In this document: piece by piece, positions 57,160-64,000 of the stretch
Numbering within the stretch: position 1 is the stretch's first letter
Layout of the letters: each line of letters begins with the position of its first letter
DNA from: Methanoregula sp.
Lineage (GTDB): Archaea > Halobacteriota > Methanomicrobia > Methanomicrobiales > Methanospirillaceae
Direction of reading: 5' to 3'
DNA: 64,000 nucleotides
NCBI GenBank assembly: GCA_039698055.1
Contig: JBDKTL010000007.1
Span: 53,884-117,883 of the forward strand
Notes under the pieces: generated by a model
Databases searched by the model: none
What the model was told of the DNA's origin: nothing
Seen by the model: only the letters and a program-made list of their open reading frames with translations
Translations under genes and position numbers: made by a program

Positions 57160-58017
57160 TTACACCACCCCCAGGTAATAGAGGGCAGCAAGATTTACGA
57201 TACCCATGATTGCGGCAATAATCCACGAAGTCTTCATGACTAACTGCCACTTCACCCGTGCGCTCGCATTGTCGATGAGCAGTTCAAGCAGGTAGACGAG
57301 GATGACAGCGACAACACCAATCAACGGGTTGAACGCGAAGAACAGGTACACAAACCCGAGCAGGAACACCACTTCGTACCAGTGAGTGACCTCGATAAGC
57401 CCCAGTGTCGGACCCGAAAATTCCGTTGTCACGCCTTTGACAATCTCCTGGTGGGCATGGTGGGACGTCGAAATATCAAACGGTGATTTGCGGAGTTTGA
57501 TCGTCAGGATGTAAATGAACCCGGCGAAAATGCCCGGTATGAACAGGACGAGGGGCTGGGTAAATCCGGCAATTGTCCCCACGGAGAAACTTTTTGTGAC
57601 AACATACATGCCCGCTGCGGCAATAATGACCATCGGTTCATACGCCATGATCTGGATCAGTTCCCGTTCTGCGCCGATGTGGCTATAGGGAGAGTTTGCC
57701 GAGTACGCACCAAGGACAAGGAATACCTGCGCCAAAGTGAGGGCGAAGATCACAAGCAGGATATCCCCACCGGCAAAGAAGAGCGCCCCGGTAAAGATCA
57801 TGAAGACAAAGTAGCTGATCACGTAGAAGATCTGCGTTTCATTTGCCACGGTCCGTTCTTTCTCAAAGAGTTTTCCCACATCGTAGAATGGCTGGAGTAC
57901 TGGCGGCCCGACCCTGCCCTGCATGTGAGCGGAGATCTTCCGGTCAATACCGGCAACAAGCCCACCGATAACCGGTGCAAGCAGAATAAATACGGCCGCG
58001 TTGACAAGAGATATCAC
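57160..58017 (-). CDS. echB: Ech hydrogenase membrane subunit B
   Basis: DRKISAHMQGRVGPP.LQPFYD and KSPFD..HHAHQE (NuoH-like). Confidence 0.94.
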   Translation of the reverse strand: MISLVNAAVFILLAPVIGGLVAGIDRKISAHMQGRVGPPVLQPFYDVGKLFEKERTVANETQIFYVISYFVFMIFTGALFFAGGDILLVIFALTLAQVFLVLGAYSANSPYSHIGAERELIQIMAYEPMVIIAAAGMYVVTKSFSVGTIAGFTQPLVLFIPGIFAGFIYILTIKLRKSPFDISTSHHAHQEIVKGVTTEFSGPTLGLIEVTHWYEVVFLLGFVYLFFAFNPLIGVVAVILVYLLELLIDNASARVKWQLVMKTSWIIAAIMGIVNLAALYYLGVV

Positions 58018-59918
58018 AGGATCACCCCTGTAAATGTCCCCGCCACAAACATGACTGCGATGAGTCCGGTACAGACATACACACCTAAGGTCTGGAGTTT
58101 GACCTCCCCAAACCAGGATGTAAGGTAATAGTTGGAGAGTTTTGAATCACGTTTCAGGCCGATCGCTCCTGAATAAGACTGGTCCGCATTGGTGGTCATT
58201 CCGCACATGTAGGGTGACAGCTGCTTATGCTTCCGCTGGGGCAGGAGGATGCTCAAGGGGAGGATAACGATCAAAAAGAGCATCATCACCATGATGGTGA
58301 TATTGTCCTGTGAAAGGCGTGTCACCGAGCCGTAATTAGCAAGCAGGAACGGTTCGATCAGTTTTACCGAGATCAACGGGAAGATGAAACAGGTAACAAC
58401 TGTCAGGCCTGCGAGCGAGATCAGCGCTGTCCAGATAGTGGCATCAATATTCTTCTCGAGGTCTTCCTGAGGCCGGGTGACGGCAATCAGCCGGCCCATC
58501 CACTTTGCCCAGAAGAAGAGGGTGAGTGCACTGCCAAACGCGAGAATAATGACAAAGACAAACCCGAATGGTGCGTCGATGAATGCCTGGATGGCTGCCC
58601 ATTTGGAGATCAGCATACCAAACGGGGCAAGGAACATGCCGGCAATACCGATAACGATCATCGCAGCAACCTTTGGCATGCGGACGATAAGCCCGTTCAT
58701 GTCCTCGATATCGCGGCTCTTGATCTTGTGCTCCACAGTACCCACTGCGAGGAAGAGGAGTGACTTTGAAATCGCATGGAAGATGATCAGCAGGATTGCT
58801 GCCCAGATCGCTTCATAGGTTCCGATACCCGCACAGGCAACGACAAGACCGAGGTTTGCAATCGTGGAATATGCGAGCACTTTTTTCGCGTTGCTTTGCG
58901 AAATGGCAATCCCCGATGCAATGAGGAAGGTGAGTGCGCCAACCATCGCCAGCAGGTAACCGGTTAAGGTCATGGCAAAGACCGGTGCAAGGCGGACGAG
59001 GATATAGACACCCGCCTTGACCATGGTGCTTGAATGAAGGAGTGCAGATACAGGTGTCGGTGCCACCATCGCCCCGACCAGCCATGAGGAAAACGGCATC
59101 TGTGCAGATTTTGTCAGTCCCGCAAAGCCGATCAGGGTCGCCGGGATAAGGACGAGTGCCTGCCCGGATGCAAGTACCTGGTCAAGTCCCAGTACCCCGC
59201 CGGCCTGTGATGCAAGGTAAACAAGTGCAATGGCAAACGCGATGCCGCCCAGCAGGTTCATCCAGAGTGCGGTGAACGCGTTTTTTGTTGCCTCCTGGGT
59301 CTTTGTGTACCCGATCAGGAGGAACGAACACAGGGTCGTGACTTCCCAGAAAAAGTACACCCAGAGCAGGTTGTTTGAAAATACCAGCCCAAACATCGCG
59401 GAGATGAATACAAACATGACGAAAAAAAAGATATTGCGATTATCTTTCATCTCCTTGTGATGTGCATGGAAATCTTTCATGTACCCGAGGGAATACACGC
59501 AGATCAGGCACCCGATAATGCCGATGATGAGTGCCATGATGATCGAGAGCGGGTCGATAAAAAGGGGAAATGTCACATCCGCCGCATGGGCATATGCAGT
59601 TTCAAACCAGACCATCACTGCAGACTGCACAAGTATCAGCGCAACAACAAGGTAATTCCGGTATTTTATCCCCAGGTACAGGATAAAGACTGCAATCACA
59701 ATCTCGATACAGAACATGAGAAGGCTTACAGGCTCTGCGGCGAGAGAATAATAGATTGTCCCCTTGTCGAACAGGCTTACCAGGAGCAAAACCGTAACCG
59801 CACCTATACCCAGTGCGGACAGTTTTACGATCCAGTTGCGCTCCAGATCACTTCGCACAAGAAGCATGAAAAGTGCGCAGATGAGTGGAAACAATATGAG
59901 AAATAGTAAAAGCTGCAC
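58014..59918 (-). CDS. echA: Ech hydrogenase antiporter-like subunit A
   Basis: FWE, KSAQMPFSSWL.GAMVAPTPVSALLHSSTMVKAG (NuoL/MrpA-like); GTG start. Confidence 0.94.
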   Translation of the reverse strand: MQLLLFLILFPLICALFMLLVRSDLERNWIVKLSALGIGAVTVLLLVSLFDKGTIYYSLAAEPVSLLMFCIEIVIAVFILYLGIKYRNYLVVALILVQSAVMVWFETAYAHAADVTFPLFIDPLSIIMALIIGIIGCLICVYSLGYMKDFHAHHKEMKDNRNIFFFVMFVFISAMFGLVFSNNLLWVYFFWEVTTLCSFLLIGYTKTQEATKNAFTALWMNLLGGIAFAIALVYLASQAGGVLGLDQVLASGQALVLIPATLIGFAGLTKSAQMPFSSWLVGAMVAPTPVSALLHSSTMVKAGVYILVRLAPVFAMTLTGYLLAMVGALTFLIASGIAISQSNAKKVLAYSTIANLGLVVACAGIGTYEAIWAAILLIIFHAISKSLLFLAVGTVEHKIKSRDIEDMNGLIVRMPKVAAMIVIGIAGMFLAPFGMLISKWAAIQAFIDAPFGFVFVIILAFGSALTLFFWAKWMGRLIAVTRPQEDLEKNIDATIWTALISLAGLTVVTCFIFPLISVKLIEPFLLANYGSVTRLSQDNITIMVMMLFLIVILPLSILLPQRKHKQLSPYMCGMTTNADQSYSGAIGLKRDSKLSNYYLTSWFGEVKLQTLGVYVCTGLIAVMFVAGTFTGVIL

Positions 59919-60106
59919 TCGCTATCCTCCCTTTTTAGGGAATATGCGTATTTTTCATTATTAACCATATTGAATTGCACACGGATCTTCATTTCCCAAC
60001 TATCTTTTACCGGAGAGACTATCGCAATTCGCTGCAGGAATTTCCTGTTATGGTACTATTATCCCCTTAAAGGACTCTTTTTGCAGGCATCCGGTCATGC
60101 TAAATG

Positions 60107-60345
60107 TTTAATGGTTAAAAAATGCACTAATAATCTCTAGGGATGAGTTATGGACACGTGCGGGCAGTCATGCCCCGGAACCATGTGCGCCTCCCTGTGG
60201 GTCATATAAGCAGCACGCTGCTGACATGCCAATTGTTATACCTGATATGTCTGCTGTGGAACCCGTTTCAGCAGTACTGTTCGTGCGATCATAACGCACA
60301 AGGGACTGTATTTCGGATCCAAACAACATAGCAGGAGGTCTAGGA
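60107..60345 (+). promoter_or_regulatory. Putative promoter and long structured 5' leader of hppA
   Basis: TTTAAT at 60107, several GC-rich stems over 60138-60299, SD AGGAGG at 60333-60338. Confidence 0.5.
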
Positions 60346-62388
60346 ATGATTGAACTCGCAATAGTAGTTGTTGTAAGCGTTATCGCACTTATCCTCGCGG
60401 CAATTCTCGCCCGGAGTGTCCTCTCACAGGATGAAGGAACCCCAAAGATGCGCGAGGTTGCAGATGCCATTCGTGTGGGTGCGGAAGCATTCATCAAGCG
60501 ACAGTATTCGACCATCGCGATCCTGGCACTGGTGCTTGCCGTGGTAATCTTTGCTGTATACTTCTTTACCGGACAGCAGGGCCTTGCCATAGATACGGCA
60601 TTAGCGTACCTTGTCGGTGCGTTCTGTAGCGCCCTTGCCGGTGTGATTGGTATGTCAGTTGCCGTCCGCGCTAATGTCCGCACGGCAGCAGCTGCTCAGA
60701 CAAGCGCCGCAAAAGCACTGGACGTTTCGTTCCGTGGCGGCGCAGTCTCTGGCCTGATCATCACGGCTATGTCGCTCCTTGGGGTCTCGCTCACCTATTA
60801 TGCACTTGGCGCAGACCCGCATGTCACCCCGTTCATTATCGTCGGATTTGGTTTTGGTGCATCGTTTGTTGCACTCTTTGCCCAGCTGGGTGGCGGGATC
60901 TACACAAAGGCTGCAGATGTCGGTGCAGACCTTGTGGGTAAAGTCGAGGCAGGCATCCCCGAAGACGATGTCCGCAACCCGGCAACCATCGCTGACCTTG
61001 TTGGAGACAACGTCGGTGACTGTGCCGGTCGTGGCGCTGACCTGTTCGAATCGACCGCCGCAGAGAACATCGGGGCAATGATCCTCGGTGTTGCGATGTT
61101 CCCGGTCTTTGGTGTCAACGGTATCCTGTTCCCGCTCGTGATGTGTGCGTTCGGACTTCTCGCCAGCATGATTGGTATCCTGTCGGTTCGTGGAAAGGAA
61201 AATGCAGACCCGATGGACGCGCTGAACCGGGGATATTATATCACCGCGATCATTGCCGCTGTCCTCTTCTATATCGGCACGATGTGGCTGCTTGGCAATG
61301 TCTGGTTCTTCTACGCAGGACTCGTCGGTATCGTATTATCGGTGCTTTTCCTGCGGGTGACGATGTATTATACCGATCACCACTACCGCCCCGTGCAGGA
61401 AATCGCCAATGCTTCTGAAACAGGACCGGCAACAAACGTTATCACCGGTTTCTCGGTCGCCCTTGAAACCACTGCAATCCCGGCAATCCTGATCGGCATT
61501 TCCCTGCTTGTCTCGTACTGGTTTGGCACGATGAGCGGTGTCGCATTCGGCGGCCTCTATGGTACTGCCGCGGCAACTATCGGAATGCTCATGGTCTGTG
61601 CTTACGTCCTTGCGATGGATTCCTTTGGCCCCATCGCGGATAATGCCGGTGGGATCGTTGAGATGAGCCAGGCACCAGAATCAGTCCGCAAGAGGATGGA
61701 CGCCCTCGATTCGGCCGGCAACACCACAAAAGCGCTCACCAAGGGATATGCAATCGGCAGCGCCGCTCTCGCCGTCTTCCTGCTCTTCAATGCCTACATG
61801 AACGATATTTCACGGCTTATCGGCAAGACATTTGACGTTGTAAACATTGCAACGATACCGGTCTTTGTCGGTGCCTTGCTCGGCGCTATGCTGATCTTCC
61901 TGTTTGCAGGATTTGCTATCCGGGCAGTTTCCAAGACCGCTCAGTATGTTATTGAAGAAGTCCGCATCCAGTTCAAGGACCCGGCAATTATGGCGGGCAC
62001 CAAGAAACCTGATTACGCCCGCGTGATCGACATTACGACCCTTGGCGCACTTAAAAACATGGTCGTTCCCGGTGTTCTCGCAGTTGCGTTCCCGATCTTC
62101 ATTGGTGTAACCATGAAGTATGAGGCGCTCGCGGGATTCCTCCTTGTCGGGACCATTACCGGTATCCTGCTTGCCCTCATCTTAAACAACGGTGGCGGGG
62201 CATGGGATAATGCAAAGAAATACATCGAATCCGGTGCACACGGCGGTAAGGGGAGCGAAGCCCACAAGGCAGCCGTTATCGGCGACACGCTCGGCGATCC
62301 ATTCAAGGATACTGCAGGCCCGTCACTGCACGTGCTCATCAAGCTGCTGGCCACGCTTTCGCTTGTGCTCGCACCGCTGTTTATCTAA
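60346..62388 (+). CDS. hppA: Membrane-bound pyrophosphatase, predicted K+-independent H+-PPase
   Basis: GGGIYTKAADVGADLVGKVE, DNVGD, DNAGG and DPFKDT; GNTTK carries the Lys diagnostic of K+-independent enzymes. Confidence 0.95.
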   Translation: MIELAIVVVVSVIALILAAILARSVLSQDEGTPKMREVADAIRVGAEAFIKRQYSTIAILALVLAVVIFAVYFFTGQQGLAIDTALAYLVGAFCSALAGVIGMSVAVRANVRTAAAAQTSAAKALDVSFRGGAVSGLIITAMSLLGVSLTYYALGADPHVTPFIIVGFGFGASFVALFAQLGGGIYTKAADVGADLVGKVEAGIPEDDVRNPATIADLVGDNVGDCAGRGADLFESTAAENIGAMILGVAMFPVFGVNGILFPLVMCAFGLLASMIGILSVRGKENADPMDALNRGYYITAIIAAVLFYIGTMWLLGNVWFFYAGLVGIVLSVLFLRVTMYYTDHHYRPVQEIANASETGPATNVITGFSVALETTAIPAILIGISLLVSYWFGTMSGVAFGGLYGTAAATIGMLMVCAYVLAMDSFGPIADNAGGIVEMSQAPESVRKRMDALDSAGNTTKALTKGYAIGSAALAVFLLFNAYMNDISRLIGKTFDVVNIATIPVFVGALLGAMLIFLFAGFAIRAVSKTAQYVIEEVRIQFKDPAIMAGTKKPDYARVIDITTLGALKNMVVPGVLAVAFPIFIGVTMKYEALAGFLLVGTITGILLALILNNGGGAWDNAKKYIESGAHGGKGSEAHKAAVIGDTLGDPFKDTAGPSLHVLIKLLATLSLVLAPLFI

Positions 62389-62795: not shown

Positions 62796-62884
62796 TATTA
62801 AAAACTTCCATTCTCTTTTATTGACCTCGCATGTGCGGTCTCATATATCTTGTTACCGGTACATTAAAAAAAGTCAGGGACCGG

Positions 62885-64000
62885 TCAGGATACCTTCCTG
62901 AATATCCCTTTTGGAATATGAATTTCGAAACGTGCACCTTTGCCAGGTTCCCCTGTTTCCCGGATAGTCATGCCAGTCATTGCCAGTACTTCCGCGACAA
63001 AAAACAATCCAAGACCCGTATGGGTGCCAAAACCTTTCTCAAAAATTTTCTCTTTATCGGTGTAGGGAATCCCTTTGCCGTCGTCTTCGATAACGAGGAC
63101 AAATCCCGAAGGCGTCATCTCTCCACTGACATGTATCCGTATATCTTTTTTCCCGTGCATAACGGCATTTTCAAAGAGATTGTGCAGGACCATTTTAAAG
63201 AGCGGATCGGAAAAAATATCCATGCCGGTAAGGAGGGCATCGATCGTGACGTTCTGAAAACGTCCATCCCTGCACGCACTCCGTGCAGCAACACAGATGT
63301 TCTGCCAGCCCGGGTCCTCTATACCGATATCCTGGTACATCTGGGTAAACGAGATCTGGCTTTGAATGACTTTTCCGGTCTTTACTGCTTTTTTCAGGAG
63401 CGTTTTAACTTCAGGGTCGGTATTTTTTTCATCGATAAAATCGAGGTATGCCTGGAGGGCGGTCAGCTGGTTAAGGATATCATGGCGGGTGATACCGGAA
63501 AGAAGGTTAAGTTTTTTATTGGCTTCATGGAGTGCATGATCGGCGCGCCGGCGATCCGTAATATCCCTTCCAACGGACTGGTACTCGGTCACCGTACCTG
63601 TTGTATCAAAGATTGCCCGGTCAGACCACTGCTGCCACCTGATTTCACCATCCGGCATCCGGATGCGGTGTTCGATTGTATGTACAGGGTGATCCAAGGT
63701 TATGGCAGCAAAATGTGCACGGATTCGCGGGAGATCTTCCTTTGGAATATCCGGAATAAAGTGCTTGCCGATAATCTCGTCCCGCTGTTTTCCGAAGTAC
63801 CGGCAGTACGCCCCATTGACAAACCTGTGGGACCCATCGGGTGAAAAGCGGCAGATGAATTCGGTCTGGTCCTCGACCACATCCTCGTACCGCTCTTTAG
63901 TCTCGCGGAGCTCCTCCTGGCTTTTACTCAGCTCATCATAATTCTGCCGGAGTTCTTCTTCGGTTGCGGTGAGTTGCTCATACGCCGCATTCAGCTCTTC
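62885..64000 (-). CDS. PAS-domain sensor histidine kinase (5' part outside window)
   Basis: Frame open from 64000 (EELNAAYEQL...); PAS/PAC, TRHDILNQL H-box, NAVMHG, DDGKG and GLGL. Confidence 0.93.
   Translation of the reverse strand, partial: EELNAAYEQLTATEEELRQNYDELSKSQEELRETKERYEDVVEDQTEFICRFSPDGSHRFVNGAYCRYFGKQRDEIIGKHFIPDIPKEDLPRIRAHFAAITLDHPVHTIEHRIRMPDGEIRWQQWSDRAIFDTTGTVTEYQSVGRDITDRRRADHALHEANKKLNLLSGITRHDILNQLTALQAYLDFIDEKNTDPEVKTLLKKAVKTGKVIQSQISFTQMYQDIGIEDPGWQNICVAARSACRDGRFQNVTIDALLTGMDIFSDPLFKMVLHNLFENAVMHGKKDIRIHVSGEMTPSGFVLVIEDDGKGIPYTDKEKIFEKGFGTHTGLGLFFVAEVLAMTGMTIRETGEPGKGARFEIHIPKGIFRKVS

Follow-up and report, generated by a model that had tools for sequence, protein, structure and literature searches.

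The hppA mRNA of Methanoregula appears to begin with a genus-specific, cis-acting structured 5' leader, a reading that, together with the protection and clamp mechanism proposed for it below, is given a probability of about 0.55 on the basis of comparative sequence analysis and folding models. Such a leader would most likely control both the translation and the stability of the hppA message. The leader family is new and matches no family in Rfam. The leader was studied in a stretch of Methanoregula DNA of 64,000 nucleotides, called the window here, in which the gene and its start region are as follows:

60346-62388, plus strand: hppA, membrane-bound H+-pyrophosphatase of 680 aa (Pfam H_PPase PF03030, E 9.7e-252).
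60334-60348, plus strand: Shine-Dalgarno (SD) sequence GGAGG at 60334-60338, a spacer of 7 nt and the hppA ATG at 60346-60348.

In the hppA product the GNTTK motif has a lysine, a residue taken to mark the K+-independent proton pumps among the membrane pyrophosphatases. The gene was present in 41 of 41 relatives. SD-like motifs peak genome-wide at 9 to 14 nt ahead of ATGs. On the minus strand, a divergent gene (58014-59918), the listed open reading frame (ORF) of which lies 427 nt upstream of hppA, was syntenic with hppA in 36 of the 37 large loci. Its product matches Proton_antipo_M, and the adjoining gene matches NADHdh. The true start of the divergent gene probably lies downstream of the listed GTG, since the protein alignment begins at residue 18. 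The minus-strand region 57160-59918 has the layout of a divergent operon, the Proton_antipo_M/N and NADHdh matches of which correspond to subunits of an energy-converting hydrogenase or an Mrp-like complex. Downstream of hppA, the minus strand encodes a PAS-domain histidine kinase (62885-63880; PAS_4, PAS_3, HATPase_c); a plus-strand ORF that overlaps the kinase gene (62831-63844) has no Pfam match.

The element was sought with two covariance models, R1, made from eight close relatives with a hand-set structure, and R2, which was rebuilt from 77 hits. R1 found one copy in the own genome (E up to 10) and matched 73 of 108 genomes of the genus, with at most one copy in each. This model was too narrow and missed a divergent clade; 17 more genomes were added using R2 or an R1 search of the locus, 16 of which were also read by eye. 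A search with the hppA N-terminus gave a match in 98 of the 108 genomes. The element was present in 89 of the 89 Methanoregula genomes with an orthologous hppA 5' end, defined as at least 76% identity over 200 residues, always as one copy just upstream of the gene, and one further genome of the genus has it at a contig end. No model match was obtained in the nine genomes of the genus that have only another form of hppA (46-66% identity), and the six of these nine that were inspected lack the element. The loci L113-L117, which have only the 46-48% identical form of hppA, carry a different conserved block some 60-110 nt upstream of that gene, with an inverted repeat of the CCAG...CUGG type just before a TATA-like box and then a short leader. 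Judging from its letters, this block looks like a transcription-factor site.

Outside the genus the element was not encountered. Of 151 genomes sampled from the order, 10 matched, every one of them in the genus Methanoregula, and none of the 138 genomes from 32 other genera of the order contained it. Loci of hppA in other genera have short leaders that are unrelated to the Methanoregula leader; three genomes of other genera in the same family, with hppA 64-70% identical, also have short leaders without the element. One locus of another genus in the family (L130; hppA 70% identical) has a AUCAUACCU-like stretch about 20-40 nt before the hppA start, directly preceding the SD, AUCAUACCU being a motif of the Methanoregula domain. 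This stretch could hint at the ancestral state before insertion of the long leader, or it could be due to chance. An exact degenerate pattern run over 185,579 species yielded 46 loci. R2 recognised 37 of them as true elements, whose labels are without exception Methanoregula, Methanoregulaceae or Methanomicrobiales; the remaining nine were discarded as bacterial chance matches. A contig labelled 'uncultured proteobacterium' (L137) fitted the pattern over a span of 53 nt, like some Methanoregula loci, but has no covariance-model match and was put down to chance. A search of the literature library found no report on the Methanoregula hppA leader element.

In the loci of the genus the conserved block has sharp bounds. 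It runs from an A-rich stretch and TTTAAT over about 145 nt and is followed by about 75-95 nt that are unalignable and then by the SD-to-ATG block, which is near-invariant among 81 leaders. An hppA start was found downstream of the domain in 83 of 87 leaders, at a distance of 82-113 nt in 81 of them; two leaders, at an apparent 41 and 62 nt from hppA, were set aside as odd. No conservation was seen upstream of the TATA-like box. The following features belong to the start of the block:

60099-60114, plus strand: putative promoter, an A-rich BRE-like stretch and a TTTAAT(G) TATA-like box, kept in 18 of the first 18 genus loci.
60124-60138, plus strand: conserved block between the TATA box and the predicted start, with nine positions conserved at 90% or more.
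60137-60147, plus strand: 5' end of the hppA transcript, with the start predicted at 60137-60140 and RNA contigs from 60147.

The geometry of archaeal promoters is established knowledge and was the basis for predicting a start from the TATA box; it suggests that 60099-60114 acts as a promoter. The TTTAAT box lies at 60107-60112, where the original prediction had placed it, and from 60107 the geometry leads to a start at 60137-60140. In the genome as a whole, TATA-like motifs show a weak bump at 31-33 nt before ATGs, with counts of 11-14 over a background of about 5, in agreement with this prediction. A scan for sigma-70 promoters and intrinsic terminators, which is not designed for archaea, returned 0 sites.

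The block at 60124-60138 was 88-92% identical even between genomes with 46% identity at 4-fold sites. It lies outside every covarying helix and is more conserved than the RNA domain, which is 65% identical at such saturating divergence. From these patterns, it is most likely a promoter or operator signal at the DNA level rather than RNA. Possible roles are those of a promoter-proximal element, of an operator or, together with the A-rich box at 60115-60123, of a component of a second promoter.

Transcription of the leader was seen in contigs from four metatranscriptome runs, which come from one study and two samples and may contain DNA. In three of the four runs (X1, X2 and X4) the contigs share 60147 as their first position; one of them, of 2076 nt, runs from there on through hppA. 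Contig cover was absent over 59804-60146. Depths of these contigs are unsuited to ranking the leader against the hppA gene body. As the contigs extend from 60147 through hppA, the leader is co-transcribed with the gene, in agreement with the long leader originally proposed: about 200-210 nt are transcribed with hppA. The proposal had also depended on a transcript start at some distance from the ATG, and the contigs start at 60147.

The predicted start at 60137-60140 would put the first hairpin of the leader, P1, which begins at 60139, at the very 5' end, whereas the contigs, at contig resolution, start at 60147. That position is inside the 5' arm of P1, and the first base of one contig is unaligned. 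If 60147 were the true start, P1 could not form. Covariation speaks for the 5' arm of P1 being RNA; the contig ends at 60147 could represent end-loss in the libraries, a second start served by the A-rich box at 60115-60123, or processing.

An ORF overlaps the leader:

60143-60331, plus strand: ORF of 62 codons, a chance ORF and not a gene.

Its ATG is only a few bases from the predicted transcript start, which would allow the region to encode a small protein or leader peptide from a near-leaderless start, and in some relatives its end overlaps the hppA start as ATGA. The ATG was, however, found in only 52 of 81 leaders, the lengths vary from 1 to 70 codons with scattered ends, and indels shift the frame even against a relative with a 97% identical hppA. 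The peptides derive from the same conserved bases, read in frames that differ, and the 62-codon ORF has no Pfam match. A coding function for the region is barely credible on this record.

The 5' domain of the leader consists of three structures:

60139-60197, plus strand: P1, a long imperfect 5'-terminal hairpin (base-pair probability 0.989 in the window).
60198-60231, plus strand: P2 domain, with an outer helix UGG..CAU (60198-60205) pairing with AUG..CCA (60226-60231) and the hairpin P2 (60209-60213/60218-60222).
60235-60246, plus strand: P3, a weak 4-bp hairpin, paired in 91% of cells, mostly with wobble changes.

The single-sequence fold of 60130-60360 is not significantly more stable than shuffles (minimum free energy of -72.1 kcal/mol vs -68.0 +/- 4.9; z -0.84), and 39 of 200 shuffles fold as well as the real sequence. 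That the fold appears to be more than chance is owed to comparison and not to the sequence of the window alone. The comparison used alignment A6, with 87 hits on R2 in 86 distinct rows; four antisense hits were excluded, and L006, L103 and L111, which are true but weak hits, were left out. In A6, 87.5% of cells pair vs 42-52% with slid partners, 24 of 32 pairs are changed on both sides, and double-change cells number 115 vs 22-73 in the control. On all five measures, 0 of 500 shuffles equalled the observed value, counts that overstate the significance because the alignment was fitted to the model structure and the sequences are kin. The original prediction had hung on conservation and covariation among relatives, and the structure of the leader shows both. 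RNAalifold, applied to a plain MAFFT alignment of 18 leaders, recovered just 16 pairs because the inner stems were misaligned, and was superseded by the covariance models.

P1 has a purine-rich 5' arm, a pyrimidine-rich 3' arm, an inner AUGG/CCAU and an apical GGGCA/TGCCC (60162-60175). Both-side changes occur in 16 of 19 pairs of its helices 1-4, and its fifth base pair is U-A, C-G or G-C depending on the clade. The apical stem and the internal loops of P1 differ in length and sequence among relatives. In the outer helix of the P2 domain both-side changes were found in five of five pairs. The P2 hairpin is paired in 97.5% of cells; its stem GCAG/CUGC is near-invariant and its loop variable. 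P3, when forced in the window, costs 11.7 kcal/mol.

The stems listed in the original prediction are all present in the window: TAGGGA (60138-60143)/TCCCTG (60192-60197), CACGTG (60155-60160)/CATGTG (60182-60187), GGGCA (60162-60166)/TGCCC (60171-60175), AGCAG/CTGCT (60209-60222), CTGCTG/CAGCAG (60251-60274) and GTGCG/CGCAC (60283-60299). Among relatives, the outer stem of P1, the apical GGGCA/TGCCC and AGCAG/CTGCT, which is P2, turned out to be conserved. This was not so for CACGTG/CATGTG, in place of which relatives keep AUGG/CCAU (60150-60153/60181-60184).

Many G-U pairs, together with antisense scores of 14-17 bits against 75-133 bits, place the structure on the hppA (plus) strand. The weak antisense hits of R2 (L073, L078, L081 and L084; 14-17 bits) arise as artefacts from helices that are nearly palindromic. 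Identity was 65% in the 5' domain and 66% in the SD block at a divergence that leaves 46% identity at 4-fold sites. A K-turn or C/D-box in the P1 internal loop or the clamp was considered and rejected: by eye there is no tandem G.A with a 3-nt bulge, and the C-box-like bases are unconserved.

A further helix, which was absent from the original prediction and is called the clamp here, joins the 5' domain to the flank of the SD and encloses a variable insert:

60241-60250, plus strand: 5' strand of the clamp, with invariant CCUG, one unpaired A and UAUGU.
60326-60335, plus strand: 3' strand of the clamp, with ACAUA, an unpaired G and CAGG, covering the first two G of the SD (60334-60335).
60251-60325, plus strand: variable insert, constant in length, with hairpins at 60251-60274 and 60283-60299 in the window genome.

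In the window the clamp is thus made up of CCUG/CAGG and UAUGU/ACAUA, with one A.G mismatch between them. When 81 leaders were folded, the mean predicted pairing of the SD was 0.70, and the predicted partner of the SD flank was the CCUG of an invariant ACCUG. Of the SD pairing, the half with P2 and P3 took a predicted share of 0.34, the coding region 0.23, the insert 0.08 and the P1 half 0.06.

The clamp was examined in two ways. An alignment-free offset analysis made use of the 65 distinct leaders with both anchors (68 of 81); of the 13 leaders left out, 12 have no exact CAGG and one has no exact CCUG, and several of the 13 keep the clamp pairing via wobble or a shift of the helix. Pairing over offsets 2-9 amounts to 76.3% vs 22-59% at shifted registers; permuted partners average 68.7%, and 0 of 1000 permutations came up to the real figure. 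Several offsets show compensatory types, and 45 of 65 leaders have the A.G mismatch. In A7, a structure-blind MAFFT alignment of 81 leaders, 86.2% of clamp cells pair vs 26-54% when slid, with 60 double-change cells vs 11-42. On three of five measures 0 of 500 shuffles reached the observed value; on the other two, 108 and 46 of 500 did so. In the window itself the consensus register of the clamp has a predicted probability of 0.024, at a cost of 2.7 kcal/mol, and the energy model favours pairing of 60251-60257 with the SD flank, in a neighbouring register. P3 and the clamp are mutually exclusive because the 3' strand of P3 is shared with the clamp strand (60241-60246). Masking of the SD by the clamp is partial, since only its first two G are covered and the next two bases (A and G) are mostly unpaired in the window.

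Identity of the insert is 0.36-0.44 where that of 4-fold sites is 0.46-0.67, so it evolves at or above the neutral rate. It is also the most stable part of the leader: the mean z against shuffles is -1.26 for the whole leader, -0.88 for the 5' domain and -1.93 for the insert, with 95% of leaders below 0. The last two hairpins of the original prediction fall in this region, which does hold stable structure but is not conserved in sequence.

The original prediction had contained a different pairing of the SD. As it stated, GCCTCCCTGT at 60189-60198 can pair with the SD region GCAGGAGGT at 60331-60339, with one bulged C. On this basis a three-part switch can be drawn in which the 3' arm of P1 is an anti-SD that sequesters the SD whenever the 5' arm of P1, the anti-anti-SD, is displaced or absent, as it would be in a shorter transcript from 60147. 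The pairing joins CCUCC to GGAGG and UG to CA over one bulge and reaches 7 bp in many relatives; transcripts such as the RNA contigs from 60147 would lack the P1 5' arm, and a second start could be driven from the A-rich box at 60115-60123. The predicted partners of the SD nevertheless do not follow the anti-anti-SD/anti-SD/SD layout, the P1 half having a much lower share than the P2 and P3 half and the P1 3' arm itself a share of 0.03. Even without the P1 5' arm the share is just 0.13, exceeding 0.5 in 11% of leaders, and in the window the pairing has to be forced at a cost of 6.3 kcal/mol. The P1 5' arm covaries, which indicates that it is present in the functional RNA. The anti-SD pairing does not lend itself to a covariation test because the SD is near-invariant. 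All in all, the three-part switch is sterically possible but seems highly improbable. Pairing of the SD with the conserved bases just 5' of P1 was dropped as well, because these lie upstream of the predicted start.

As in a riboswitch, a conserved and covarying structured domain is located upstream of hppA, then comes a variable region and then the ribosome-binding site (RBS), which is the usual layout of aptamer and expression platform. P1-P2 would in that case be an aptamer for PPi, Pi, a cation or protons, and the ligand would shift the balance of P3 or an alternative fold against the clamp and thereby access to the RBS. Alternative structures are at hand in P3 and the clamp, which share a strand and exclude each other, and in a larger fold that joins the ACCUG region to the P1 5' arm and the outer strand of P2 to the inner strand of P1. 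This fold would expose the 3' arm of P1, rich in pyrimidines, in a loop. It pairs in 79.1% of cells but has no covariation beyond shuffles, since 108 to 391 of 500 shuffles are as good. It was therefore not retained.

Sensing of PPi/Pi, a cation or pH, as originally suggested, gained no positive evidence. The only unpaired positions of the RNA with at least 90% conservation are A-C-C at 60240-60242, which pair in the clamp; outside the clamp strand, such conservation of unpaired positions is confined to the pre-start block at 60124-60137. There is hence no sign of a ligand pocket, since no unpaired RNA position beyond the clamp strand is conserved at 90% or more. The P1 internal loops and apical part are variable, and the element is single-copy and restricted to one gene in one genus. 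Rfam covariance models gave no match in the leader at E up to 10 (window region 59800-60600) or at E 1 (12 relatives), the sole rows being at chance level with 12.6 and 18.1 bits, far below the gathering scores. The families without a match include Na+-I/DUF1646, Li+, c-di-AMP, PRPP/ppGpp, fluoride and TPP; the original prediction, in which no Rfam family had been recognised, agrees with these scans of the window and 12 relatives, and a riboswitch here would be a new class. A true riboswitch appears improbable, and there is only a slim chance that the leader is the first archaea-specific riboswitch-like class sensing a pyrophosphate, ion or pH state. The riboswitch reading is unproven and less likely than that of a cis-acting leader for translation and stability.

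In the mechanism proposed for such a leader, the 5' hairpin P1 would protect the message from decay that depends on the 5' end, and the clamp would anchor the RBS, partly masked, at the foot of a three-helix junction. Since the clamp would leave the RBS only partly masked, the rate of translation initiation would depend on how clamp and insert fold. A trans-acting factor may shift the balance, because P3 and the clamp share a strand and P2 is conserved in sequence and not merely in pairing; such a factor is more likely a protein than a metabolite.

The leader might also be purely constitutive, a 5' hairpin stabiliser or translation-context element of a highly expressed gene, with neither switching nor a trans-acting factor. 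The position of P1 at the predicted 5' end, the strong conservation of the promoter elements and the stability of the whole leader, the 5' domain and the insert, all above that of shuffles, fit this reading. Stabilising 5' UTRs have a precedent in methanogens in those of mtaA and mtaC, which are reported to stabilise transcripts (PMC5378194). The stems of a stabiliser should, however, drift by covariation, whereas three motifs have an unchanging sequence even at saturating divergence, namely the P2 stem, UCCU in P1 and CCUG/CAGG in the clamp. The clamp also retains one purine-purine mismatch (A.G, in 45 of 65 leaders). These fixed motifs and the retained mismatch hint at a sequence-specific partner, and a constitutive leader is accordingly regarded as possible but doubtful.

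Several known systems bear comparison with the hppA leader. In stabilisers of the Escherichia coli ompA type, a 5'-terminal stem-loop stabilises the mRNA of a membrane protein with a long leader. The hppA leader shares with these a stable hairpin at or near the 5' end, that of hppA being predicted; the two belong to different domains of life with different RNases, and the hppA leader adds sequence-invariant helices and a clamp on the SD flank, which a plain stabiliser of this type would not need. Leaders of ribosomal protein genes are restricted to lineages and single loci, have stems conserved in sequence and an RBS that adjoins the structure. Like such autoregulatory leaders that bind protein, the hppA leader has stem sequences conserved beyond pairing and an RBS beside the structure. 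The hppA product is a membrane enzyme for which we know of no RNA-binding activity, and a protein binding the leader is only hypothetical.

Closer to Methanoregula, long 5' UTRs, stem-loops that mask the RBS and UTR-dependent stability have been reported in methanoarchaea, so that the kind of leader is already known (PMC5378194). Of the 5' UTRs of Methanolobus psychrophilus, 24% are longer than 150 nt, and RBS-masking stem-loops were predicted (PMC5378194). The long 5' UTRs of Methanosarcina mazei and M. psychrophilus precede membrane or energy genes, as does the hppA leader, and share with it a predicted stem-loop touching the RBS and a proposed role in stability or translation (PMC5378194). 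They were defined by mapping of start sites in single species, whereas the hppA leader was defined by covariation in about 90 species. In contrast to these UTRs, the hppA leader has a specific predicted architecture of three helices and a clamp.

The Na+-I riboswitch (DUF1646 motif) also has a conserved hairpin domain, a variable region and an RBS before the gene of an ion-translocating membrane protein (PMC9337991). It is bacterial, occurs with many genes in several phyla and carries clusters of conserved nucleotides both at the P1 base and in the P2 loop (PMC9337991). The word pyrophosphatase is absent from the main text of that paper (PMC9337991). Unlike Na+-I, the hppA leader lacks a cluster of conserved unpaired nucleotides, has no Rfam match and occurs at a single gene of a single genus.

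In conclusion, few cis-regulatory RNAs are known in archaea, and the hppA leader has comparative support from about 90 species. It combines a defined architecture with a clear target gene in an environmentally dominant methane-producing genus of peat and wastewater. The analysis also carries a caution, in that riboswitch-like layouts derived from one sequence need comparative tests. If it merely stabilises the message or tunes its translation, the hppA leader would still be useful for catalogues of RNA families. If the riboswitch reading were true, the P1-P2 junction would bind a signal and, through the balance of P3 or the alternative fold with the clamp, set the amount of the Methanoregula proton-pumping pyrophosphatase. 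The leader raises the question of how methanogens that live at the thermodynamic limit regulate a pump that recycles the energy of pyrophosphate.
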